From Pasteurella multocida (GTDB lineage Bacteria > Pseudomonadota > Gammaproteobacteria > Enterobacterales > Pasteurellaceae), in contig NZ_LT906458.1 of assembly GCF_900187275.1 (NCBI RefSeq), forward strand, positions 480,001 through 512,000: a stretch of 32,000 nt of DNA, in the 5' to 3' direction. Within the stretch, counting starts at the first letter, position 1; the number at the start of each line of letters is the position of its first letter. This document shows positions 5,671-15,582 of this stretch, piece by piece. The notes below the pieces were generated by a model that worked only from the letters and a program-made list of their open reading frames with translations, was not told where the DNA came from and searched no databases. The position numbers were made by a program, and so were the translations under genes.

Positions 5671-6645
5671 ATGAACGCAACCTTAAATGTCGCTATTGCG
5701 GCAGAATTCGAATTAAGCGAGAAAATTGCTGAAACACTAGAACAAAGTCAATTAAATATTAGTCAATTATCAATTGTTGAAATTTATCCTTTCAATGAAG
5801 AACAAGGGATACGTTTTCATAATAAAAGTGTGGTACAACTTAAACCAGAAGAGGTGGAATGGTCATCAATCCATTATCTTTTCTTTGCTGGCGATATTCA
5901 GCAAGTCGCTCATCTCGCGAAAGCCGCAGAAATGGGTTGCGTGGTGATTGATATGAAAGGGATTTGTGCCAGCTTGCAAGACGTCCCTGTGGTGATACCG
6001 GGAGTAAATCAGGAAAAATTGGTAGATTTACGTCAGCGTAATATTGTGTCCTTAGCCGATCCACAAGTGACACAACTTGCATTAGTCATCGCCTCGTTGA
6101 TGTCAAATCACGAAATCAAAGACATTGCCGTAACCTCGTTATTACCTGCATCTTATACTAACGGAGAAACGGTAGGTAAATTAGCGGGACAAACAGCGCG
6201 ATTGTTAAATGGCATTCCACTTGATGAAGGCGAACAACGTTTAGCTTTTGATGTTTTCCCTACGCCTGCATCGCATTTAAATATGCAAATTCACAAGATC
6301 TTTCCACAATTAAATAATGTCGTATTTCATTCTATCCAAGTGCCTGTTTTCTACGGGATGGGGCAAATGGTGAGCGTATTATCGGATTATGCATTAGATC
6401 CTCAATCTTGCTTAGCGAGCTGGACTGACAATCCGTTGATGACTTATCATGCAGAAAAATATTGCACCCCAGTGACGAATGGCGAACAGGAAATGGCAGA
6501 AGAGCAAGCAGCAAAATTACATATAAGTGGGTTAAGTGCGGTGGAAAATGGTCTACAATTTTGGTCGGTTGCAGATGAACAGCGCTTTAATCTTGCTTTA
6601 TTGAGTGTTACGCTTGCAGAGTTAATTTACTCGCAAGGTTATTAA
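5671..6645 (+). CDS. usg: USG-1-like protein (aspartate-semialdehyde dehydrogenase family paralog)
   Basis: 324 aa with Asd/ArgC-like architecture (N-terminal Rossmann-like region, IPGVN, ADPQVTQL, C-terminal dimerisation part). Assigned by overall resemblance to enteric and Haemophilus Usg proteins. Confidence 0.65.
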   Translation: MNATLNVAIAAEFELSEKIAETLEQSQLNISQLSIVEIYPFNEEQGIRFHNKSVVQLKPEEVEWSSIHYLFFAGDIQQVAHLAKAAEMGCVVIDMKGICASLQDVPVVIPGVNQEKLVDLRQRNIVSLADPQVTQLALVIASLMSNHEIKDIAVTSLLPASYTNGETVGKLAGQTARLLNGIPLDEGEQRLAFDVFPTPASHLNMQIHKIFPQLNNVVFHSIQVPVFYGMGQMVSVLSDYALDPQSCLASWTDNPLMTYHAEKYCTPVTNGEQEMAEEQAAKLHISGLSAVENGLQFWSVADEQRFNLALLSVTLAELIYSQGY

Positions 6646-6690
6646 TTTAAATGTGTTTTTGCACGATATTTTTATCTTGAACTTTGAGAG

Positions 6691-6718
6691 CGCACTCGTT
6701 TTTGACGAGTGCGTTTTT
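6691..6718 (+). terminator. usg rho-independent terminator, which also forms the left edge of the island
   Basis: CGCACTCGT-ttttg-ACGAGTGCG followed by TTTTT. Its 3' arm ACGAGTGCG is also the first conserved block of junction-repeat copy A. Confidence 0.8.
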
Positions 6719-6746
6719 GTTAAAACATTCGTTTGAAAGACAGTGA
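6705..6746 (+). repeat. island junction repeat, copy A (diverged)
   Basis: acgagtgcgtttttgttaaaacattcgtttgaaagacag aligns with the consensus cgtgtTCACACGAGTGCGGTTTGATTAAAGCACTCGTCAAAGgCGAG..CTAGCTGTGGG seen in copies B-F. Confidence 0.6.
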
Positions 6747-6953
6747 ATGAATAGCGGAGTTATTGATAAGAATCAATTTATACAAAAGCAACTGAATGTT
6801 ATTAATCGAGGCAATAAACCTATTGATAGTTTTAGTTGGCGCCATAATACATAAACTGTACTTAATAATATGCAATCAATACCTAGAAATATTCATGACG
6901 TAATCCAACATATCGGGGAGGGGATTTTAAGTGATGGTAGAAAAAACATTTAG
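6747..6953 (+). pseudogene. orphan WHH (HNH/EndoVII-superfamily) nuclease toxin tip, inactivated
   Basis: The frame reads MNSGVIDKNQFIQKQLNVINRGNKPIDSFSWRHNT*TVLNNMQSIPRNIHDVIQHIGEGILS. It is homologous to copy B, but WHH has become WRH and there is an in-frame TAA at 6852. No N-terminal delivery region is present. Confidence 0.7.
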
Positions 6954-7452
6954 AAATCTAAAAATATATGATGATTATGGTTCTGTCTCTCAGGAAATTA
7001 TTTTTAATTTTGAAAAAGAGTTTGATATAAAACTCCCTTTATCCTATATCTCACTTGTGAAAAAGTATAATGGCGTTTGGTTTAAGGAAAGTGATTTTGA
7101 ATATTTATCTCAAAATGGGAAAAGAATAATAAGCTCATTGAGTTTTGATAGTTTTGAGACAAAAGATAATATCGAACCAATGAATAATATATTAAGACAA
7201 TATATTTATGATGATGAAATTTATGGATATAAGAATGTTTATTCCTTTGGTTACACTGGAAATGGTGACTTTGTCTGTTTTGATTATCGTGATGACCCAA
7301 AAGGTGATGAGCCCAAAATCTGTATCGTGATTCATGATGAATATGATGAAAAAACAGGCAAGCGTTTGTTATTGCCTGTGGCAGAAAATTTTGAGGCATT
7401 TTTAGATATGCTTTACGATTTTGATGAACGCTATCCGAATGGTTATGAATAG
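6934..7452 (+). CDS. SUKH/SMI1-KNR4-family immunity protein, paralog 1
   Basis: Intact 172-aa ORF (ATG at 6934 preferred over GTG at 6931). It has the typical SUKH N-terminus (..IE.FE.EF.IKLP..YI.L..KYNG) and lies directly downstream of, and overlapping, a WHH toxin tip. It is paralogous to 8417..8926 and 10672..11187. Confidence 0.8.
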   Translation: MVEKTFRNLKIYDDYGSVSQEIIFNFEKEFDIKLPLSYISLVKKYNGVWFKESDFEYLSQNGKRIISSLSFDSFETKDNIEPMNNILRQYIYDDEIYGYKNVYSFGYTGNGDFVCFDYRDDPKGDEPKICIVIHDEYDEKTGKRLLLPVAENFEAFLDMLYDFDERYPNGYE

Positions 7453-7508
7453 GTATTTGTTTAAATAATGTGTTGTATTTTTTAAGCATTATTTACAACT
7501 AACATTTT

Positions 7509-7568
7509 AAGTGCGGTCAATTTTGAAAAAGTTTTGGGCTTTGAGAATTGGGCGCATTTTTTTTGAAA
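7509..7568 (+). terminator. USS-containing terminator module, copy 1
   Basis: AAGTGCGGTCAATTttgaaaaagttttgggctttgagAATTGGGCGCATTTTTTTT: exact USS core, imperfect inverted repeat and a T8 run. The same about 55-bp module recurs at 11237 and 13352. Confidence 0.65.
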
Positions 7569-7790
7569 TATTCTTCAATGATGAGCACTAATTATGGATT
7601 AGATAATGGGAATTATCGAGATATGGATGGTAATAAAGGATGGAGGCTAGATTTTGATCCTGAGAAAGTTGTTCATGTAAATATTTTTGACTTTACTAAA
7701 GGTAAAGGACTAGGTAAAGCAGTTAAAAAGTCATTCTTTTTGATAGTACTGAACAAGAGTTTGAAAAATTTTAAAGCAATTAAATAAGGA
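7548..7790 (+). pseudogene. unclassified toxin C-terminal fragment (5'-truncated, frameshifted)
   Basis: It begins inside the preceding terminator with no credible start. It reads ..NYGLDNGNYRDMDGNKGWRLDFDPEKVVHVNIFDFTKGKGLGKAVKK. The natural continuation (ILFDSTEQEFEKF) lies in another frame, which implies a 1-nt indel near 7730. Confidence 0.5.
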
Positions 7791-7797
7791 AGATAAA

Positions 7798-8151
7798 ATG
7801 ACATTATTTGATGAATGTAAATTAGCTCTTAGAGACGATTTTAATCTAATTTGTGATGAAGAGAAGGATTGTGTAATGGATAAGTTTTATTTCTATTTCT
7901 TGGAAAAGAAAGAGGAATTTAATTTTCAAGATTATTCATTTGAAGAAATGTATATATTTTCAAAAATGGAACCTGTGTATGTTTTATGTGATAGCTCTAA
8001 TATACCTTTGTTTAGGAGTAATTGGGAATTGATTATCAATAATATATATGATGTTGTCTGTTTATCTACAAAAGTATTTTTTCTAGATGATGAAAAGTTA
8101 ATGATGGAATTATTTCCTGAAGATAAAGTAAGAGTCATCTATAAAAGATAA
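7798..8151 (+). CDS. putative immunity protein (117 aa, singleton)
   Basis: Intact ORF with SD AAGGAAGATAAAATG, acidic and cytoplasmic, immediately after a toxin remnant. The assignment is by context, and no family was recognised with confidence. Confidence 0.55.
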   Translation: MTLFDECKLALRDDFNLICDEEKDCVMDKFYFYFLEKKEEFNFQDYSFEEMYIFSKMEPVYVLCDSSNIPLFRSNWELIINNIYDVVCLSTKVFFLDDEKLMMELFPEDKVRVIYKR

Positions 8152-8412
8152 TTACCCCTTGATCGCGCTCGTGTCAGCACGAGTTCGCTTTCATTAAAGC
8201 TCTCGTTAAAGACTAGCACTAGCAGTGAGGTTGATCGTAATCAATTTACTGAAGAACAGTTAATTAAAATTAATAAGAGGCTTGATAAAATAGAGGGATT
8301 TACATGGCATCATAACTCACAAAGTAGTCCCCAAAATATGTAGTTAATACCTACACCAATTCATAAGGCTGTTCAGCATATAGGTGAAGGCGCTTTAAGT
8401 GAAGGAAAGTGA
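8152..8412 (+). pseudogene. junction repeat copy B (8167..8230) read through into an orphan WHH nuclease toxin tip with a single nonsense codon
   Basis: The frame is open from 8152: ..DRARVSTSSLSLKLSLKTSTSSEVDRNQFTEEQLIKINKRLDKIEGFTWHHNSQSSPQNM*LIPTPIHKAVQHIGEGALSEGK*. The WHH motif and distal H are intact. TAG at 8341 stands where copy A has CAA. Confidence 0.75.
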
Positions 8413-8416
8413 TAAA

Positions 8417-8926
8417 ATGAAAAATTTTAGGAATATAAATATTTATAGTGATTATGGAAAGGTTGATAAGGAAATTATATTAGAATTCGAAAATGAATTT
8501 AATATAAAGCTTCCTTCTTTATACATAGATTTAATTACGGCGCATAATGCTCCGAAGAGTGAAGAGAATTGCTTTGAATATTACAATGAGCGTAATGAGC
8601 CCACGTTTTCTTCCTTTGGATTTGAAGGGTTTGAGACAGAGCGGTCTAGCGCCTCTCTTGAAAATATATATGCTCAGTATATTTATGATGATCCAATCTA
8701 TGGTTATGAACATGTGTATTCTTTTGGTAGTACTGGCGAGGGACATTTTATCTGTTTTGATTATCGTGATGATCCAAAAGGTGATGAACCCAAAATCTGT
8801 ATCGTGATTCACGATGAATATGATGAAAAAACAGGGAAAATGCGACTGTTTCCTATAGCAGAGAATTTTGAAGCGTTTTTAGATAGTTTGAAATCATTTG
8901 ATGAAATGATAGAGAAGTATTCGTAA
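8417..8926 (+). CDS. SUKH/SMI1-KNR4-family immunity protein, paralog 2
   Basis: Intact 169-aa ORF from ATG 8417 (the track start GTG 8399 overlaps the toxin tail). MKNFRNINIYSDYGKVDKEIILEFENEFNIKLPSLYIDLI... It shares a near-identical DNA block (FDYRDDPKGDEPKICIVIHDEYDEKTGK) with paralog 1. Confidence 0.8.
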   Translation: MKNFRNINIYSDYGKVDKEIILEFENEFNIKLPSLYIDLITAHNAPKSEENCFEYYNERNEPTFSSFGFEGFETERSSASLENIYAQYIYDDPIYGYEHVYSFGSTGEGHFICFDYRDDPKGDEPKICIVIHDEYDEKTGKMRLFPIAENFEAFLDSLKSFDEMIEKYS

Positions 8927-9003
8927 TGTCTCCGTTCATATCTCATAGCGATGCTCTCTCCCCTGATTTTATGGAAATTTTGTTTAAATTAGGAGGGCAC
9001 TAA
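8926..9003 (+). pseudogene. last ~24 codons of a second toxin type (tail only)
   Basis: ..SPFISHSDALSPDFMEILFKLGGH* matches the tail at 9522..9596 (LAPFAVSDLISPDVMEILFKLGGD*). It is cut off at the stop of the preceding SUKH gene. Confidence 0.55.
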
Positions 9004-9004
9004 A

Positions 9005-9358
9005 ATGAAAAAATTTTATTTAATTTTTTTATTATTCCTAAGTGGATGTTTTTATCATGATGGATGTATCTATACTCCTCAGATGGTAAATTGTTTTGTT
9101 GATAAAGGAGATATATTTCCATCAATATCTCGGTATCAAAAGCCTTATAGTCTAGGAAAAACCAATTCAGAACAGCGTTGGAAGGATGTTATGTTTTGTG
9201 GAGGTAAATATGGTGATTATAAATTAGAGAATATAAAAACAGTGGAACAATCGGATAAATTACATCATTGTATGACCCAAAAAGGGTATATCCATTTAAC
9301 TCCCGCAGAATGTGGATACCAAAATCCTAAATGGGATAAAGGCGTTTGTAATTTATAA
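9005..9358 (+). CDS. small lipoprotein, putative periplasmic immunity protein, paralog 1
   Basis: MKKFYLIFLLFLSGC has a signal peptide plus lipobox. SD GGAGGG lies upstream. The C-terminus TPAECGYQNPKWDKGVCNL is shared with 9598..9969. Confidence 0.7.
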   Translation: MKKFYLIFLLFLSGCFYHDGCIYTPQMVNCFVDKGDIFPSISRYQKPYSLGKTNSEQRWKDVMFCGGKYGDYKLENIKTVEQSDKLHHCMTQKGYIHLTPAECGYQNPKWDKGVCNL

Positions 9359-9596
9359 GTGTTTTGGATTTTACTTTACGAATTTTTTTTGAAAAAAGTT
9401 ACCGCAGGTATGTTTTTAATCAAAGCCCAGGTGGCGCTTGTTGGATGTGTTATTCGCATAGTAGTTATTATGCGGAAGTGCTAAATGAATTCATTATTAA
9501 AAATGGAATTAAAGAGCGTAATTAGCACCGTTTGCGGTGAGTGATTTAATTTCTCCTGATGTTATGGAAATATTATTTAAGTTAGGAGGTGATTAG
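9359..9596 (+). pseudogene. longer remnant of the toxin type paired with the lipoproteins (no start, frameshifted)
   Basis: One frame reads ..EKSYRRYVFNQSPGGACWMCYSHSSYYAEVLNEFIIKNGIKERN* (stop at 9523). A second frame continues LAPFAVSDLISPDVMEILFKLGGD* (stop at 9594). A T8 run lies at 9383..9390. No initiation codon is present. Confidence 0.5.
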
Positions 9597-9597
9597 G

Positions 9598-9969
9598 ATG
9601 AAAAAGTTGTTATTGTTCAGTTTATTATTACTTTTAAATGGATGCCTATATTCTTTTGAAGAGGAGTGTTTTAGACCGTTAATTCAGGTGGGGTCATCTG
9701 CTTGTCATAAGAATAAAGGAGATATATTTCCATCAATAGCACGTTTCCAAAAAGTAGAGAACATCGGAAAAACTGATGCCAAGCAACGTTGGAAAGATGC
9801 GGTTGATTGTGGAAGTAAGTATGGCGATGAAGATTTAATATATATAAATGATAATAATTTATATAGCATTTTTCACTCCTGTATGGTTAAAAAAGGATAT
9901 AAAAAGTTTCATCCCGCAGAATGTGGATACCAAAATCCTAAATGGGATAAGGGTATTTGTAATTTATAA
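9598..9969 (+). CDS. small lipoprotein, putative periplasmic immunity protein, paralog 2
   Basis: MKKLLLFSLLLLLNGC (lipobox-like), SD GGAGG. ATG 9598 is preferred over GTG 9589. It shares GDIFPSI.R.QK....GKT...QRWKD...CG.KYGD and ..PAECGYQNPKWDKG.CNL with paralog 1. Confidence 0.7.
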   Translation: MKKLLLFSLLLLLNGCLYSFEEECFRPLIQVGSSACHKNKGDIFPSIARFQKVENIGKTDAKQRWKDAVDCGSKYGDEDLIYINDNNLYSIFHSCMVKKGYKKFHPAECGYQNPKWDKGICNL

Positions 9970-10033
9970 GTGTTTTGAATTTTACTTTACAAACTTTTTT
10001 TGAAAAATGTTACCGCTGGTATGTCTGTTTTTA
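9970..10033 (+). repeat. third, abortive copy of the 5' end of the lipoprotein-cassette unit
   Basis: gtgttttgaattttactttacaaactttttttgaaaaatgttaccgctggtatgtctgttttta matches 9359..9420 and then diverges. This marks a tandem-duplication boundary. Confidence 0.6.
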
Positions 10034-10105
10034 GGGATAAAGATTCGTTCATTTTCTTTAAATTTAGGCACGGTATAAAAGAGCTTGATTATCAAATAAT
10101 AATAT

Positions 10106-10172
10106 CGTGTTCGTGTCCACACGAGTAGGGTTTGATTAAAGTACTCCTCAAAAGCGAGTGCTAGCTGTGGGG
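10106..10172 (+). repeat. island junction repeat, copy C
   Basis: cgtgttcgtgtCCACACGAGTAGGGTTTGATTAAAGTACTCCTCAAAAGCGAGTGCTAGCTGTGGGG. In the frame used by copy B it carries a stop (TGA), followed by a 28-codon tail ending at 10220. Confidence 0.7.
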
Positions 10173-10208
10173 TAAACGGTGGGAAAGAAAGTAAAGAGTA
10201 TATAAACC

Positions 10209-10235
10209 AATTGACCGCATAACGTGCGGTCAATT
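10209..10235. repeat. perfect USS-like inverted repeat hairpin
   Basis: AATTGACCGCA-taacg-TGCGGTCAATT (11-bp stem). The core differs from the canonical USS by one base (ACGTGCGGT). It lies between junction C and the convergent minus-strand ORF. Confidence 0.6.
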
Positions 10236-10243
10236 TCTAAGAT

Positions 10244-10450
10244 TTATGAGTTCCAGAAAAATAGACCGAAAAGTGCGGTAAAGGGGTAACGAAACACAAA
10301 AAATAAAAATATGACAGCAAGCTGTGTCATTAAACCCCAGAAAAAAACTTGACCGATTGTTGCACTGCTGAAAATGGCAAAAAGTAAGCCGATTTCATAG
10401 GGTAGCATTGCAATAAACCAGATTAATCCACTTGGATGATCACTTTTCAT
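10244..10450 (-). CDS. small integral membrane protein (68 aa, 2 predicted TM helices)
   Basis: MKSDHPSGLIWFIAMLPYEIGLLFAIFSSATIGQVFFWGLMTQLAVIFLFFVFRYPFTALFGLFFWNS is preceded by a good SD (TAAGGAGTCCGTAATG). This is the only minus-strand gene in the island. The track's longer version (to 10603) looks like a spurious extension. Confidence 0.55.
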   Translation of the reverse strand: MKSDHPSGLIWFIAMLPYEIGLLFAIFSSATIGQVFFWGLMTQLAVIFLFFVFRYPFTALFGLFFWNS

Positions 10451-10466
10451 TACGGACTCCTTATTT

Positions 10467-10586
10467 ATGGCTGATAACTTAACACTTGTATTGAAAATTA
10501 AAGCAGATTTAAACAATGCGTTGAGCGATTTTAAAGCGCTTAAAACGGAATTGCAACGCGCAGGCGTGGAGTCTATCAGTAAGTAA
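10467..10586 (+). CDS. 39-aa ORF, possible N-terminal fragment of a phage-type structural protein
   Basis: MADNLTLVLKIKADLNNALSDFKALKTELQRAGVESISK* has an amphipathic coiled-coil-like start reminiscent of tape-measure N-termini. No SD is present. This is a weak call. Confidence 0.2.
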   Translation: MADNLTLVLKIKADLNNALSDFKALKTELQRAGVESISK

Positions 10587-10611
10587 CTCGCCAGTTTTTG
10601 CAATCATTTAT

Positions 10612-10650
10612 CATATTCACAAAGCCGTAATGCATATTGGAGAAGGTTAA
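10612..10650 (+). pseudogene. last ~12 codons of a third WHH toxin tip
   Basis: HIHKAVMHIGEG* aligns with PIHKAVQHIGEGALS of copy B. Everything upstream has been replaced by the 10244..10603 segment. Confidence 0.6.
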
Positions 10651-10671
10651 GTGTAAGTGAAGGAAGATAAA

Positions 10672-11187
10672 ATGAAATTTAGACATTTTGGCATTTATTA
10701 TGATTATGGCGTAGTTTCCCAAGAGATTATTTTAGATTTTGAGGAAACGTTTGGTATTAAATTACCAAAATTGTATATTGAGTTGATCACAAAACATAAT
10801 TCCCCAAGATTGAATAGAGATCATTTCAATTATTATGATTTCTCTACGAGTGAGGAAGAAGGAACGGAATTTATATTCAAAGGATTTGAAACAGAAAGTA
10901 ATAGGCATGCGCCGCCAGAAAATATTTATGCACAATATCTTTATGATGATGAAATATATGGTTATGAACATGTGTATTCTTTTGGCAGTACCGCTAGTGG
11001 TGACTTTGTCTGTTTTGATTACCGAGATAATCCGAAAGGCAGTGAACCTAAAATTTGTCTTGTGATTCATGATGAATATGATGAAGAAACAGGCAAGCAT
11101 TTATTGTTTCCTGTGGCAGAAAATTTTGAGGTATTTTTAGATATGCTTTACGATTTTGATGAACGCTATCCGAATGGTTATGAATAG
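10672..11187 (+). CDS. SUKH/SMI1-KNR4-family immunity protein, paralog 3
   Basis: Intact 171-aa ORF from ATG 10672 (SD AAGGAAGATAAAATG). The 3' ~90 bp plus the downstream ~70 bp are near-identical to paralog 1 (..PVAENFE.FLDMLYDFDERYPNGYE*). Confidence 0.8.
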   Translation: MKFRHFGIYYDYGVVSQEIILDFEETFGIKLPKLYIELITKHNSPRLNRDHFNYYDFSTSEEEGTEFIFKGFETESNRHAPPENIYAQYLYDDEIYGYEHVYSFGSTASGDFVCFDYRDNPKGSEPKICLVIHDEYDEETGKHLLFPVAENFEVFLDMLYDFDERYPNGYE

Positions 11188-11236
11188 GTATTTAAATAAT
11201 GTATTGTATTTTTTAAGCGTTATTTAATAACGTTTT

Positions 11237-11286
11237 AAGTGCGGTCAATTTCAAAAAAGTTTTGCTTTGAGGAATTGACCGTTTTT
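11237..11286 (+). terminator. USS-containing terminator module, copy 2
   Basis: AAGTGCGGTCAATTtcaaaaaagttttgctttgaggAATTGACCGTTTTT: exact USS, 9-bp outer stem (CGGTCAATT/AATTGACCG) and a T-run. Confidence 0.7.
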
Positions 11287-11334
11287 GTATCATGGATATG
11301 ATGTGAGCAATTGATATCCTGTTTGTGTTAACTG

Positions 11335-11380
11335 GCATGTGGTAAAGCATTCGTCAAAGACGAGCTCTAGTGGTGAGGGA
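11335..11380 (+). repeat. island junction repeat, copy D (3' half only)
   Basis: gcatgtGGTAAAGCATTCGTCAAAGACGAGCTCTAGTGGTGAGGG. In the copy-B frame it reads VVKHSSKTSSSGEGLI and runs straight into the ATG of the next ORF. Confidence 0.65.
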
Positions 11381-11386
11381 CTAATC

Positions 11387-11773
11387 ATGAATGAACTATT
11401 GGACTTTTATAGAAATATAACTTTTTTTGAAGAATATGATGAAAACTCATTCATAGGAAGATGGCTTGATTACTCGGAATGGAATGATAAAGAATATTGG
11501 AAATTAGAGAAAGATTTACTGAAAATTGCTCAAATGTATAGAACTACTAATGAAGTTTTTCCAGATATTTTAATAGGGGTTATGCGTATCATTGAATTAT
11601 TAATGATACCTAACTGGAATAGTTTTATAATATCTAATTCAGAAAGTGTTGATATTTATGATAGATATGAACGATTTAAATATATAATTTCAATACTTTT
11701 CAATAATAAAGATGTTAGACTAGATGGCTTTTCATATACAGAAAAGAATGATGATGTATTTTATAATGAATAG
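11387..11773 (+). CDS. putative immunity protein (128 aa, singleton)
   Basis: MNELLDFYRNITFFEEYDENSFIGRWLDYSEWNDKEYWKLEKDLLKI... is an acidic cytoplasmic ORF. The track start at 11339 merely includes the junction repeat. The assignment is by context. Confidence 0.55.
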   Translation: MNELLDFYRNITFFEEYDENSFIGRWLDYSEWNDKEYWKLEKDLLKIAQMYRTTNEVFPDILIGVMRIIELLMIPNWNSFIISNSESVDIYDRYERFKYIISILFNNKDVRLDGFSYTEKNDDVFYNE

Positions 11774-11835
11774 AAAAATTAAAAGTAAGCTAATTTGTAG
11801 AAATAATAAAAGTCTCGCTTGTATTTTTTCTTTGA

Positions 11836-11872
11836 GATCGTGCTTGAGTCCACACGAGTGCTAGCTGTAGGC
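11836..11872 (+). repeat. island junction repeat, copy E (internally deleted)
   Basis: gatcgtgcttgagTCCACACGAGTG|CTAGCTGTAGGC: the outer blocks are retained but the central GGTTTGATTAAAGCACTCGTCAAAGGCGAG block is missing. Confidence 0.6.
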
Positions 11873-11954
11873 AGAGTGTCTTGGTGATTATAAAAAGTTA
11901 AGGATAGTATTGTTGATATGAAAGAAAAGACTAAATATTCAATGGGGAATCAAA

Positions 11955-12077
11955 GTGATAAAAAATAAATTTTATATTTCTTGGTTAGGATTTTCAATAT
12001 CATTATATGTTTTGCTTTTATGTAGAGATTTGTTTTATTCTCTTTATATGTTTTTTATTATGATGTATTTGTCTTAA
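11955..12077 (+). CDS. 40-aa hydrophobic ORF, possibly a fragment of a decayed membrane protein
   Basis: VIKNKFYISWLGFSISLYVLLLCRDLFYSLYMFFIMMYLS*. The same frame stays hydrophobic after the stop (NFLLRRRFLLSLFLLCYVSLFIIHYSLFYI*) and runs through the heptamer repeat. Confidence 0.25.
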   Translation: MIKNKFYISWLGFSISLYVLLLCRDLFYSLYMFFIMMYLS

Positions 12078-12130
12078 AATTTTCTTTTAAGGAGGCGTTT
12101 TTTACTATCTTTATTTTTATTGTGCTATGT

Positions 12131-12160
12131 TTCATTATTCATTATTCATTATTCATTATT
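12131..12160 (+). repeat. heptanucleotide tandem repeat (TTCATTA) x4.3
   Basis: ttcatta ttcatta ttcatta ttcatta tt is perfect. It lies 112 bp upstream of the ATG at 12272 and just upstream of TATATATAAAT. Confidence 0.9.
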
Positions 12161-12271
12161 TTATATATAAATATGGTAAAAGGTCTGAATGCCCAAAAAA
12201 GAAACCATTAAGTGAAAATGTAACATACAATAAAAGGTAGTAGGAATAAATAAAATATTAGGAATAACAGA

Positions 12272-12715
12272 ATGATAAAATATTTAGAGGGAAATATTAA
12301 CTCGTTTATATCGGCATTAGGTAAAAACGAAAGTAATAAAGATATTTTAAAATTAGTAGAAATAGTTTCTTCAGATTTTGAAGTGGATGAACTAAGTCAT
12401 AAAGATGAACACGAGATATATTATTTGTTTTATAAGAGGGGTGTTGAATTTTGTTTTAAAAGAATAGATGAAGAGTATGTCTTATATTCGGTTTTCTTTT
12501 TCTTGGTAGAGGTTGATAATTATTTTTCATGCCCATTTATTCATGAATTAATATGTGATCTTAAACACGGATTCTCAATAGAGGATATTATAAGGTTTTT
12601 AGGGGAGCCAAATTTTAAAGGTAGTGGCTGGGTAAGATATTCTTATAATGGAAGAAATATTCATTTCGAATTTAATGAATCTAATGAATTATCCCAGATT
12701 AGCATTTTTATTTAA
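12272..12715 (+). CDS. putative immunity protein (147 aa, singleton)
   Basis: The ORF is intact. Its C-terminal ..IIRFLGEPNFKGSGWVRYSYNGRNIHFEFNESNELSQISIFI has the pattern common in small immunity families (LG.P...gg.W..Y....i.f.f......i..I.i). The assignment is by context. Confidence 0.5.
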   Translation: MIKYLEGNINSFISALGKNESNKDILKLVEIVSSDFEVDELSHKDEHEIYYLFYKRGVEFCFKRIDEEYVLYSVFFFLVEVDNYFSCPFIHELICDLKHGFSIEDIIRFLGEPNFKGSGWVRYSYNGRNIHFEFNESNELSQISIFI

Positions 12716-12729
12716 TAATTTAGGATTGG

Positions 12730-12894
12730 GAACGCTCTCGTGTTCACACAAGTGCGGTTTGATTAAAGCACTTGTCAAAGGCGAGATCCAGCTGTGGGAG
12801 ATTTGATAGAGAAATGGCTCTCAGGATTGACGTTAGTAGAGGGAGCATAAATCAAGAAAAAACATTTAAAATAGGAACATTAGGTGGTGAGTAA
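12730..12894 (+). pseudogene. junction repeat copy F (12730..12800) plus a ~30-codon residual toxin tail
   Basis: gaacgctctcgtgTTCACACAAGTGCGGTTTGATTAAAGCACTTGTCAAAGGCGAGATCCAGCTGTGGGAG contains an exact USS core at 12750..12758. In the copy-B frame there is a TGA at 12760, then LKHLSKARSSCGRFDREMALRIDVSRGSINQEKTFKIGTLGGE*, whose TAA overlaps the next ATG (TAATG). Confidence 0.6.
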
Positions 12895-13298
12895 TGGAAA
12901 TCACTCGTTTTAAAATCCTACTTATTGCCTTGATTATATTAGGTAATGGGTATGTGTTTCTTGGTGGACCAGCTAAAAAACAATTCGCTATAGAAGCAGA
13001 AACAAGGCGGATTTATCGTACTTTAACGAAAGAAATTATTTTTATGAATGGAGAATATAAACAATTTGGAGGGCGAGTTATTCAAGGATTTACTTTAGTC
13101 ATTTCTTTTTCTCATTCAAGTACAGAAAACCGCATTAAGATTTTAGAAAAAATTAAAGAGATGGGATTTGATTCAAAAAATAAAACATCAAAACCGAGTC
13201 TTCATCTTTTTTGTCAAGGAGAAAGTGGTTTTTTGATCGCAGAAAAACCTGAATTTAGAATAGATTATGAGAAAAAGATGACTTATTGTTTGGAGTAG
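12894..13298 (+). CDS. membrane-anchored protein (134 aa, N-terminal TM helix), putative immunity protein
   Basis: MEITRFKILLIALIILGNGYVFLGG is followed by a soluble domain. The start is coupled (TAATG) to the upstream toxin-tail frame. Confidence 0.55.
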   Translation: MEITRFKILLIALIILGNGYVFLGGPAKKQFAIEAETRRIYRTLTKEIIFMNGEYKQFGGRVIQGFTLVISFSHSSTENRIKILEKIKEMGFDSKNKTSKPSLHLFCQGESGFLIAEKPEFRIDYEKKMTYCLE

Positions 13299-13351
13299 CA
13301 AAGGAAGGCAATGATAAGTGTATTTTCTAATCAGATTTAATTTAAGTATTA

Positions 13352-13403
13352 AAGTGCGGTCAATTTTGAAAACGTTTTACTTTGAAAAATTGACCGTTTT
13401 TTT
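13352..13403 (+). terminator. USS-containing terminator module, copy 3
   Basis: AAGTGCGGTCAATTTtgaaaacgttttactttgaaAAATTGACCGTTTTTTT: exact USS, 10-bp outer stem and a T7 run. Confidence 0.75.
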
Positions 13404-13417
13404 ACATGAGAGAGTGA

Positions 13418-13774
13418 AAGTACACCACCTTAGGCAATGTGGTTGTGGATAAGGTGATTAAGGAATACCCAAATGGGGGTTATGAAGCGAGGGTGCTGAT
13501 CCCTAACCCGAAAGCGAAAACCGATCCTGATGCGCCGAAATTTTTGGAGAAAAGGGGAAATGAAGGTGTATCCACAATGTTTCCAAGAACATGGACAGAG
13601 GATAGGTTGAAAGTGGAGTTAGAGCATGCGTTTAATAATAGAGTACCAATGGAAAAGTTTGAAAATAAATGGGAAGGTATAACAAAATCAGGCGTGAAAG
13701 TAGAATGGGTTCTGGATAGAAATGGTAAAGTGTTGACTGTTTATCCTTCTAGGAAACAAGGAGTTATAAAATGA
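13418..13774 (+). pseudogene. EndoU-like (bacterial EndoU nuclease-type) toxin C-terminal fragment
   Basis: The frame is open from 18 nt after the terminator. ..GVSTMFPRTWTEDRLKVELEHAFNN...ITKSGVKVEWVLDRNGKVLTVYP resembles the distal half of bacterial EndoU toxin domains (K..FP..Ws.e.i....gv.i.vv.d..g.i.TayP). The His-bearing proximal half and any delivery region are absent. The only start is the weak GTG at 13439. Confidence 0.5.
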
Positions 13775-14196
13775 AAGTAAAATTTGGTTATTATGCTTTG
13801 AATGGAGACTGGGATACTTATTGTAAAGTATATGAAAGTGATAATAAGTATGATGATAGTGTTGTTACTGACTATATTGGTACATTAGACGAGCTAAATT
13901 GGATAGATAACATATTACAAATGCTTAAAAATCCATCACTTGATAGAGGGTGGATTGATGCAGAGCCTTTTGAAGCTTTGATAGATCATGATCAAATAAA
14001 AGTGGGTTTCTATTTATTGGATGATATGGAAGAAGAGGACATCCCTGATGATGTTGACGAAAGAGATACCGATCCCCGTTTCATCCCCCGTAAAGAATTT
14101 GCCTATTTACTGGAAAAATGGATCGCTTTTTACCAAAGACCTATTACTGATATGAATTACCAAGAAATTATTGACACCAAGGAGGCGTATTTATGA
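13771..14196 (+). CDS. putative immunity protein for the EndoU-like toxin, paralog 1 (141 aa)
   Basis: The start overlaps the toxin stop (ATGA at 13771..13774). It is highly acidic (DDMEEEDIPDDVDERD) and paralogous to 14336..14728. Confidence 0.7.
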   Translation: MKVKFGYYALNGDWDTYCKVYESDNKYDDSVVTDYIGTLDELNWIDNILQMLKNPSLDRGWIDAEPFEALIDHDQIKVGFYLLDDMEEEDIPDDVDERDTDPRFIPRKEFAYLLEKWIAFYQRPITDMNYQEIIDTKEAYL

Positions 14197-14335
14197 CTGT
14201 GATTGTGGGTGGATATTCCACCTTAGGCAAGGTGATAAAAGAATAATAAAATCAGGTGTTGAAGTGATATAACATTTTGATAAAATAATAATATTTCAAC
14301 AGTTTATCCAGTAATAAATTGATGGAGATAATAAA
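14197..14335 (+). pseudogene. internally deleted second copy of the EndoU-like toxin fragment
   Basis: ggatattCCACCTTAGGCAAggtgataaaagaata matches 13421..13460, and aaatcaggtgttgaagtga...cagtttatcca matches 13684..13745. The ~220 bp between them is missing and there are multiple stops. Confidence 0.6.
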
Positions 14336-14728
14336 ATGAAAGTTCTTTTTAGTTATGGCACATATAATAATCGCCCACATAAAGCTTGCTGCGTTTATGA
14401 AAGTAATAATCGGGAAAATGATGAGGTGATTATTGATTATCTTAGCACGTTGGAACGTTTAAGTTGGATGAGTAAGGTATTAGAGATGCTTCGAGATTCA
14501 ACGATTACTCGGGATTGGATTAGTTCGCAGTCATTTGATGCCTTGATAGATCATGATCAAATAAAAGTGGGTTTCTATCTGTTAGATGATATGGAAGAAG
14601 AGGACATCCCTGATGATGTTGATGAGAGAGATACCGCTCCCCGTTTCATTCCCCGTAAAGAATTTGCCTATTTGCTAGAAAAATGGCTGGATTTTTACCA
14701 CAGACCTATTACTGATATGAATTACTAA
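14336..14728 (+). CDS. putative immunity protein for the EndoU-like toxin, paralog 2 (130 aa, C-terminally shortened)
   Basis: The central ~75 aa are nearly identical to paralog 1. It ends at TAA where paralog 1 has CAA (..DMNYQEIIDTKEAYL vs ..DMNY*), and the downstream DNA is still homologous. Confidence 0.7.
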   Translation: MKVLFSYGTYNNRPHKACCVYESNNRENDEVIIDYLSTLERLSWMSKVLEMLRDSTITRDWISSQSFDALIDHDQIKVGFYLLDDMEEEDIPDDVDERDTAPRFIPRKEFAYLLEKWLDFYHRPITDMNY

Positions 14729-14838: not shown

Positions 14839-15582
14839 TTACTTTTCTTTCCAATAACCGAGCCATTCTTTTAACAGCAACATATTTTTGTTCAGGGCAC
14901 CCGCTTGTGGGATAAAATACATCACATTAAGTCCATAACTTTGGGGTGAAATACCGTGCCCTACACTAGCAGGTAAAACCTCGAATCCTTGTTGTTCAAA
15001 AAGCAGTTTAGCACGTTGCATATGCCATTGGTTTGTTACGACAATAACGCGTTTAATGCCTTCTTTTTCGAGAATCTCACGACTAAACAAAGCATTCTCT
15101 TTGGTAGTTCTTGCCTTACCCTCCACCCATGTTGTTGGAACAGAAAAGAAAGTATTGAGTTCATTTGCCATGATTTGCGCTTCTGAAATTCCTTTTGGTG
15201 AACTACCTGTAATCAATAATGGAAGTTGGGTTTGCTTTTGTAAATAAGCAGCATAACGAACGCGCTCTAGCGGGATCGCACTCACCGTCAGCTTGTCGTA
15301 TAACTCTTTGCTATCACGTAATCCGCCTCCAAGTAATACAATCGCCTGGGCTTGTTGATAATCAGCTAGGCTTAACTTGTCTTCAATGACTAAGCTATCT
15401 TCAATCTTATGTGAAGTATAAGGCAAACTAAAAATATAGAGGATCGTGAGACCTAGGAGTGCACATAAACGGCTGAGTTTTTTATAATGTAAGACAGAAA
15501 AGAGCAAAGACAGTAGCCAAAGAATCAGCACATTAAATGGCGGAAGAATAACGACAGTAATGAGTTTTGTGAGTCCGAACAT
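14839..15582 (-). CDS. elyC: DUF218/YdcF-family envelope biogenesis protein (ElyC-like)
   Basis: Two N-terminal TM helices are followed by a DUF218 core (AIVLLGGG......SG......EA..M........P...I..E..A.TT.ENA......L...GI..VI.VT...HM.RA...F...G). Confidence 0.75.
   Translation of the reverse strand: MFGLTKLITVVILPPFNVLILWLLSLLFSVLHYKKLSRLCALLGLTILYIFSLPYTSHKIEDSLVIEDKLSLADYQQAQAIVLLGGGLRDSKELYDKLTVSAIPLERVRYAAYLQKQTQLPLLITGSSPKGISEAQIMANELNTFFSVPTTWVEGKARTTKENALFSREILEKEGIKRVIVVTNQWHMQRAKLLFEQQGFEVLPASVGHGISPQSYGLNVMYFIPQAGALNKNMLLLKEWLGYWKEK

Follow-up and report, generated by a model that had tools for sequence, protein, structure and literature searches.

A non-coding hairpin repeat at the boundaries of orphan toxin-tip and immunity cassettes in the cdiBAI locus of Pasteurella multocida, with a putative breakpoint at its 3′ foot

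We analyzed a stretch of 32,000 nucleotides (nt) from the genome of Pasteurella multocida (contig NZ_LT906458.1, positions 480,001 to 512,000), hereafter the window, and in particular a short palindromic repeat, designated J, which occurs six times in an array of small genes. The array runs in one direction between usg (USG-1-like; 5671–6645, plus strand) and a DUF218 gene (14839–15582, minus strand), and about 6 kb of it holds all six copies. The proteins encoded by both flanking genes are identical in many assemblies, including that of strain Pm70 (AE004439); usg was found at the equivalent place in many P. multocida assemblies, and the DUF218 gene is the same in other assemblies. Immunity genes of the array belong to the families SUKH/SMI1-KNR4 (three genes), CdiI_ImmP, Imm41, CdiI_5, and DUF5376 (two genes). 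Two lipoprotein-like genes, a gene for a protein of 134 amino acids (aa) without a Pfam family, and remnants of WHH and EndoU nucleases are also present.

The same usg–DUF218 locus of other strains carries genes of contact-dependent growth inhibition (CDI): cdiB (618 aa) and cdiA (2793–2870 aa), the latter with TPS, haemagglutinin repeats, PT-VENN, and a WHH or EndoU tip in its full form. A cdiB–cdiA–cdiI operon was found at this locus in L005, L006, L008, L016, L017, and L020 and is missing from the window. Thus, the array consists of orphan CDI toxin-tip/immunity cassettes, in which WHH and EndoU fragments stand together with SUKH, DUF5376, ImmP, Imm41, and CdiI_5 genes. A search for the VENN codon pattern gave sites only in L010, in L016–L020, and at L017:13912, and none in the window. 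The cdiA gene of L010 (14950–20743, minus strand) is frameshifted and ends in haemagglutinin repeats, with a separate Toxin-deaminase open reading frame (ORF) without VENN next to it; this gene is probably decayed or rearranged.

A profile of J built solely from copies outside the window was used to search both strands of the 32 kb with nhmmer. It recovered all six sites proposed in the first-pass annotation of this DNA (E-values from 6.7e-20 to 9.5e-4), every one on the plus strand and none outside the array. Copy A (6684–6741, E 5.9e-5) is old and diverged; as the annotation had noted, it merges with the usg terminator, its arms 1 and 2 forming the terminator hairpin (15 bp followed by a U run; fold of −22.3 kcal/mol, z −3.5). 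Copy B (8161–8231, E 1.4e-15) folds as a long hairpin and begins 9 nt past the stop codon of the ImmP gene. Copy C occupies 10099–10174 (E 5e-19). Copy D (11310–11380, E 8.8e-18) had been described as a 3′ half; it is instead a full copy of a second, more widespread subtype with a 6-nt deletion. Copy E (11832–11861, E 9.5e-4), compared with copy C, has arm 2 fused to the tail (CACGAGTGC|TAGCTGT) by a deletion bounded by the direct repeat CGAGTGC, which arms 2 and 4 share. Copy F (12725–12801, E 6.7e-20), 9 nt past the CdiI_5 stop codon, has a compensated change in its stem and contains the exact uptake-signal core reported earlier (AAGTGCGGT, 12750–12758). No further plus-strand match with E below 0.4 was found in the window and none in the remaining 26 kb; the other low-E matches were minus-strand echoes of the palindromic copies A (6715–6692, E 0.0011) and B (8218–8153, E 0.084). 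The best E-value in 20 shuffled windows was at least 0.11. The window gave no Rfam match at gathering score.

J is about 75 nt long. Its archetype consists of a perfect hairpin of 21 bp, behind which come ..GCTAGC and a G-rich tail (GGTGGGG, GGGGGG, or GGTGAGG). In the archetype copy of L004 and Pm70, the arms GCGCTCGTCTTTAACGAGTGC and GCACTCGTTAAAGACGAGCGC enclose a 12-nt loop and the fold reaches −43.3 kcal/mol (z −9.3). Each archetype arm is itself nearly self-complementary, which results in an alternation of four short arms, and the 8-bp inverted repeat described earlier is accounted for by arms 2 and 3 of these. The exact pair ACGAGTGC/GCACTCGT of that description is a consensus which is perfect in the window in copy F only (ACAAGTGC/GCACTTGT); the inverted repeat is present but forms part of the larger one, with archetype arms of 21 nt. 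In the fold of copy F, stem 2:3 is nested in stem 1:4. The dominant subtype, here called the long form, measures about 150 nt and is a discrete unit composed of an uptake-signal dyad, a spacer, and J. Its 5′ end is sharp at AAAGTGCGGT (dyad start AAAGTGCGGTCAATTT), its 3′ end is sharp at GCTAGCGGKG, and the genes upstream are unrelated. In the window, it is represented by 11234–11380, which includes copy D (dyad 11234–11289, promoter-like TTGACC-16-TATGAT 11275–11302, J 11310–11380).

Base pairs were counted over 28 distinct aligned copies of J and compared with 500 shuffles. In the nested stems 1:4 and 2:3, five pairs (nine cells) were changed on both sides, which was matched by 0 to 8 of the 500 shuffles; the side-by-side model 1:2 + 3:4 showed no covariation. 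Compensatory changes are thus present in the stem recognized in the first-pass annotation, and its alternative reading, a non-coding structured boundary element, is supported. G–U pairs make the outer stem strand-specific. Structural support for J is real but confined to one subfamily.

Several copies resemble signals of transcription or translation. A G+C-rich stem followed by a U run, as in intrinsic terminators, is found in copies A and C and in the archetype (GATTTTATT); in copy C, arms 1 and 2 with the T run gave a terminator-like match in the scan (10108–10127). The universally conserved 3:4 hairpin has no U run. An attenuator alternating between stems 1:2, 2:3, and 3:4 was rejected because the U run comes after arm 2, so that later pairing could not stop termination, and because the 1:2 + 3:4 model lacks covariation. 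The sequence TTGACC-16-TATGAT matches the promoter consensus at 10 of 12 positions, is formed jointly by the dyad's right arm and the spacer preceding J, and is kept in all long-form copies. Promoter-like matches in the region numbered 44, against 44.1 expected from shuffles. The tail GGTGAGG/GGTGGGG lies 5–12 nt before the ATG of Imm41, of UCP019853, and of another gene.

The flanks of J were compared over 42 distinct contexts (861 pairs), taking 80 nt on each side and at least 80% identity as conserved. Conservation was limited to the upstream flank in 328 pairs and to the downstream flank in 5. The likeness of the copies to each other extends into the upstream sequence and breaks off abruptly at the G-rich tail. 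J lies just 3′ of immunity genes on the same strand: F-type copies always stand behind CdiI_5, C-type copies behind the lipoprotein gene, and the archetype behind UCP019853, while the downstream content varies. A constant upstream and a variable downstream side indicate that J ends the upstream module and that its 3′ foot is the breakpoint. The earlier statement that J marks the 5′ boundaries of cassettes is therefore right as a description, but sequence continuity places J with the module upstream.

The foot of J is joined to cdiA-derived fragments at more than ten positions and in differing frames. The joint lies about 540 codons (1618 nt) before VENN in Pasteurella sp. PK-2025, about 215 codons before it and in a different frame in L010, and 8 codons before it in L017. 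WHH tips are joined at two points, an EndoU tip in L007, and the last 31 codons of another toxin, ahead of Imm42, in L005; some tails are joined directly to the starts of immunity genes. Wherever the intact toxin sequence is known, the joint has G-rich microhomology of 1–5 nt, and its position wobbles by several nt within the G run. L005 and L010 share the upstream gene with J as well as the downstream tip with Imm42, and L010 keeps 1289 nt more of cdiA; the two joints thus represent one J with two truncation points. Copies of J also recombine with each other, which gives chimeras and arm-to-arm deletions: a copy in L007 has an F-type 5′ part and an archetype 3′ part, arm 2 is fused to the tail in copy E and at L005:12634, and arm 1 is fused to arm 4 in members 10 and 11 of the published Pam-1 family. 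Dyads alone were found at truncated-toxin boundaries at 7506–7561 (a toxin without a known family), 13349–13404 (EndoU), and L016:7720–7790 and 9900–9960 (PT-VENN orphan); at these positions and behind the active cdiI of L016, uptake-signal dyads alone play the same boundary role as J.

For the distribution of J, one genome per species was scanned with a sequence pattern instead of the full profile. True copies were found only in Pasteurella sp. PK-2025 and in Bisgaard Taxon 45 and Taxon 46; about 50 other pattern matches were due to chance. No P. multocida record was among the matches though Pm70 (L013) has fitting sequences, which may be explained by the choice of representative or by masking. 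Overall, J was found in Pasteurella and Bisgaard taxa 45 and 46 only. Of two J loci in PK-2025, one is a stretch of 24 kb of cdi orphans with 17 copies. A cdi array is also present in Bisgaard Taxon 45, along with a DUF596 gene between asd and tkt that is flanked by two long copies of J, and Taxon 46 has one isolated copy 3′ of an autotransporter gene. The complete genomes NZ_CP187170 and CP182107 each gave exact-pattern matches in two loci, namely toxin/immunity arrays or the DUF596 gene. The DUF596 unit of Taxon 45 (L080:7744–8000 with L054:1–394, at about 1.96 Mb of CP182107; also L079:1376–1995) contains two direct copies of dyad plus J, each including the last codons of the gene (TGGACTTAG). 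At the far end of a CDI orphan array of PK-2025, L053:7594–8000 holds what resembles the end of an Rhs core (..RFRYYDPESGNYISSDPIGL..) and, downstream of it, a tip; cassettes of the Rhs and CDI types are thus neighbours there.

Part of J was catalogued earlier. The Pam-1 stem-loop family, 155 nt long with 12 copies in Pm70, was described as border-spanning, containing uptake sequences, and possibly acting as terminators (Petrillo et al. 2008, PMC2267715). By sequence match, its published supplementary members 2, 4, and 9–12 contain J: members 2 and 4 correspond to copy D and the long form, and member 2 is the long-form copy of L013. Members 9–12 in Pm70 are of the same type as the dyad plus J of Taxon 45. 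Pam-1 differs from J in being defined on the uptake-signal dyad, and half of its members lack J; conversely, copies A, B, C, E, and F of the window have no upstream dyad, and only copy D has one (11234–11289). The Pam-1 paper draws no link to toxin/immunity cassettes, junctions, or cdiA, and literature searches on locus tags and on CDI in P. multocida revealed no link between Pam-1 or J and CDI cassettes.

The remaining content of the array is given here in order, all on the plus strand unless stated otherwise. Copy A is followed by a WHH nuclease tip remnant, now a pseudogene (6747–6929; translation ..VIDKNQFIQKQLNVINRGNKPIDSFSWRHNT*..HDVIQHIGEG), and by the first SUKH-1 (SMI1/KNR4) immunity gene (6931–7452; PF09346, E 1.8e-19). 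The uptake-signal dyad terminator at 7506–7561 belongs to repeat family D6, which is the family of the Pam-1 members, and adjoins a truncated toxin tip, a 79-aa ORF in which the Pfam scan found no family (7548–7787); the CdiI_ImmP gene comes next (7798–8151; PF24172, E 1.2e-21). The tail of copy B is joined to a second WHH tip pseudogene with an internal TAG, recognized from its translation and relatives (8232–8412), behind which lies the second SUKH-1 gene (8399–8926; Pfam E 8.8e-18). The two lipoprotein-like genes (9005–9358 and 9589–9969; repeat families D4, D9, and D18) are paralogous, without a Pfam family, and have the lipoboxes LSGC and LNGC; they are candidates for lipoprotein immunity proteins. 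Five lipoprotein-like genes of similar size (126–128 aa) are present in the PK-2025 array (L077/L046/L028), and tblastn found no relatedness between them and the pair of the window.

Between copy C and the third SUKH-1 gene (10657–11187; repeat families D1 and D3, Pfam in L001), the segment 10175–10656 contains an inverted uptake-signal pair (10205–10240), a minus-strand ORF of 119 aa with a weak DUF350 match, and a plus-strand ORF of 39 aa. After these ORFs, just the last 17 or so codons of a WHH tip remain (..HKAVMHIGEG, about 10590–10650). The segment looks like foreign DNA inserted into a WHH/SUKH cassette. The Imm41 gene (11388–11773; PF15592, E 7.3e-29) has its ATG 8 nt past the GAGGG of the J tail. 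About 110 nt 5′ of the CdiI_5 gene (12272–12715; PF19929, precomputed Pfam in L001), a perfect heptanucleotide repeat (TTCATTA, 4.3 copies) was found at 12131–12160; its copy number is 2, 4, 5, 7, or 8 across strains with identical flanks, and it could be a phase-variable spacer. Protein look-ups with CdiI_5 and the lipoproteins returned just the common arrangement of the window and no new junction variants. From copy F, a tip ORF of 40 codons is open, and its stop overlaps the start (TAATG) of the 134-aa gene without a Pfam family, which is a probable immunity gene; the two together span 12772–13298. The array ends with the dyad at 13349–13404, the EndoU fragment (13439–13774), and the two DUF5376 genes, together spanning 13349–14728.

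J is a real, locus-specific, non-coding hairpin repeat. The reading that we favour, at a probability of roughly 0.55, is that it is the palindromic inter-cassette repeat of the cdiBAI locus of P. multocida and its closest relatives, with the foot serving as a recurrent breakpoint of illegitimate joints. The foot and its G run would be a hot spot for illegitimate, microhomology-mediated joining, possibly through replication slippage or template switching, or because incoming single strands are trimmed as far as the hairpin. Recurring events at one foot would remove cdiB together with the 5′ part of the toxin gene that follows, and the toxin would thereby be disarmed while its immunity gene is retained. 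On the transcript, the hairpin of J probably acts as a terminator or insulator, and in the long form the promoter-like site and the Shine–Dalgarno-like tail may drive the next immunity gene.

Several observations weigh against this view. The microhomologies at the joints are short. The active cdiI genes of the intact loci examined, that of L016 among them, are followed by an uptake-signal dyad and not by J, so a module need not end in J. Across the 28 copies, the sole shared pairing is the 6-bp CTCGTC-AAA-GACGAG, which shows no covariation; the compensatory changes stem from a few lineages, and template-switch mutation can produce such changes in a DNA palindrome even when selection is absent. 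Finally, in 20 of 30 contexts (P about 2e-4) no frame stays open further past J than the one reading ..KHSSKTSAS.., and one J copy of PK-2025, in which AAG has become ATG, heads a complete GH-E nuclease ORF. This copy (L028:3685–4158, minus strand) opens an ORF of 157 aa (MHSSETSASCG..) with a complete GH-E HNH/EndoVII domain, and a gene of 190 aa downstream is ankyrin-repeat-like by eye. With the excess of open frames and the ATG-bearing copy, some translation through the 3′ half of J is conceivable.

The open frame bears directly on the reading preferred in the first-pass annotation, namely that J is part of the coding sequence of a full-length toxin, specifying a conserved pre-toxin peptide (..LKHSSKTSASGG..), and that toxin tips are exchanged by crossing over within J. 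The frame of copy B does run into a WHH nuclease tip, as had been observed, and short P. multocida ORFs (P0001–P0008, with Pfam WHH) likewise run through J into WHH tips; in 20 of 30 contexts the open frame agrees in phase with the tip or gene that follows, and the ATG supplied to the GH-E ORF and the L017 fusion 8 codons before VENN point the same way. However, the WHH-tip homologues carrying J are all ORFs of 52–105 aa, no long ORF was found to contain J in frame, and the intact cdiA sequences examined lack it: the profile gave no match in L016:1–7159 (the 3′ 7.2 kb of cdiA with VENN and WHH), in L005:13072–20294 (cdiB and the 5′ 5.3 kb of cdiA), or in the 3′ end of cdiA of PK-2025. The DNA of intact cdiA was obtained via the relative P0012; protein searches with a 600-aa cdiA repeat region and with the pre-VENN region returned just fragments among the matches listed. 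Stops occur in frames 0, 1, and 2 of 20, 28, and 24 of the 28 distinct copies, respectively; frame 0 of the dominant type has a TGA two codons before K, and copies C and F carry a TGA in the frame open in copy B, as the annotation had pointed out. Most copies have no start codon. Third-position bias, which a coding segment should show, was absent (column variability of 0.087, 0.060, and 0.071 at codon positions 1, 2, and 3 of the 3′ half), and each of the five long cdiA fragments, VENN region included, lies out of phase with J. The peptide SSKTSAS-GGE is loosely like the native pre-VENN SSLTHASIGGE, but the DNA identity is confined to GGTGGGGAG; common ancestry of the pre-VENN region and the 3′ half of J (peptide likeness SS.T.AS.GGE) was considered and left unproven. 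Judged by the refuting conditions that the annotation itself had set, the coding reading is largely refuted, and we regard it as highly improbable. For the phase bias, we prefer the explanation that the tail GGT GGG G would pair with G runs of glycine codons, which have a fixed phase; the out-of-phase joint of L010 falls in CGG GCG and is consistent with it.

Three further readings treat J as non-coding. A recombinase or nuclease might cut at the 3′ foot of J and join cassettes there, J being an attC-like, Xer-like, or HUH-type hairpin site: J is an imperfect palindrome at cassette boundaries, has one orientation and a sharp 3′ edge by the palindromic CGCTAGCG core, is restricted to toxin/immunity loci rather than spread genome-wide, and encloses, as two direct long copies, the single DUF596 immunity-type gene between asd and tkt of Taxon 45. 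We consider such site-specific capture improbable, since in several strains none of the genes called up to 10 kb away on each side had an integrase, transposase, or Xer Pfam, nor was any integrase- or transposase-like product recognized among the array-strand ORFs of at least 110 aa of PK-2025, read by eye. The boundary reads GAGCGCTAGCGG with no GTTRRRY core, the partner sites are non-specific and intragenic with a joint that wobbles in the G run, and the flanking repeats at asd–tkt include the last codons of the gene, as homologous or duplicative events predict. Xer/dif-like and attC-like cores were sought by eye in the J consensus, and none was seen. A still less probable version would have J as the cis site of a dedicated, unrecognized mechanism of cassette capture and toxin disarming in naturally competent Pasteurellaceae. 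Toxin/immunity DNA lying downstream or entering the cell would be joined to the foot again and again, either by a nuclease directed by the hairpin or because the hairpin limits the processing of transforming single strands, and immunity arrays integron-like in function would be built without an integrase. It is unlikely, though conceivable, that J is purely a regulatory spacer, giving each orphan immunity gene a terminator, promoter, leader, and ribosome-binding site, with a 3′ edge that is inherited and spread by homologous recombination, and no part in making joints. The usg terminator in copy A, the terminator-like copy C, the dyad followed by TTGACC-16-TATGAT in all long copies, the tail 5–12 nt before three ATGs, and the strand-specific outer stem agree with it; the promoter-like matches at the shuffle level do not, and it leaves unexplained why more than 20 different truncated toxin fragments start exactly at the tail, why the joints have microhomology, and why one J has two truncation points. 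A generic genome-wide palindromic repeat (REP, ERIC, or MITE-like) that is frequent here by chance has very little to recommend it. J is indeed short, palindromic, and intergenic, part of it was catalogued among the 12 Pam-1 copies of Pm70, and the Taxon 46 copy is isolated; but the matches of two complete genomes fall in two cassette-type loci each, terminal inverted repeats are missing, as AAAGTGCGGTCAATTT at one end is no inverted copy of GAGCGCTAGCGGGG at the other, and the other 26 kb of the window have no J.

The favoured reading, J as an inter-cassette hairpin with a breakpoint at its foot, can be set beside known systems. Orphan cdiA-CT/cdiI modules of CDI loci were reportedly described by Poole and colleagues in 2011. 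The concept was restated by Zhang et al. 2012 (PMC3482391). Like these modules, the cassettes of the window are tandem, co-oriented, 5′-truncated 3′ fragments of cdiA with a cognate immunity gene at a cdiBAI locus, and they vary between strains. Unlike them, they lack VENN or any sequence common to the main cdiA, many are cut to 10–60 codons or to the immunity gene alone, and the boundaries are non-coding hairpins; moreover, the array of other strains lies on both sides of cdiBA, and that of the window persists without cdiBA. Polyimmunity loci are likewise strain-variable tandem sets of unrelated immunity genes (SUKH, Imm41, CdiI families, DUF5376), but by definition they are uninterrupted by toxin cassettes (Zhang et al. 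2012, PMC3482391), whereas the J array keeps toxin-tip remnants. With the REP/BIME, ERIC, Correia (NEMIS), and BOX families, J shares the form of a hairpin repeat of 50–150 nt at gene 3′ ends or between cistrons. Roles as terminators, mRNA stabilizers, and promoter donors have been proposed for those families, several of which occur in naturally competent bacteria. J differs from them in occurring in one kind of locus, in having a 3′ foot that adjoins truncated genes, and in lacking terminal inverted repeats and a known mobilizing enzyme. Integron attC arrays without an integrase are similar in having imperfect palindromes between small, co-oriented, mostly promoter-less genes in a variable array; J has no integrase and no R′/R″ core sites, and its joints are random within genes, with no defined partner.

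The growth of orphan arrays, and the disarming of toxins with immunity kept, are usually ascribed to homologous exchange at a conserved pre-toxin sequence. Here, the boundaries are set by a non-coding hairpin and a G-rich foot joined to many points of cdiA. If J is just a terminator or promoter spacer, it shows how orphan immunity genes could stay expressed. If the foot is a true hot spot, it would provide a simple route to cells that lose a toxin and keep the immunity, and would help to trace how CDI loci have evolved in this veterinary pathogen.

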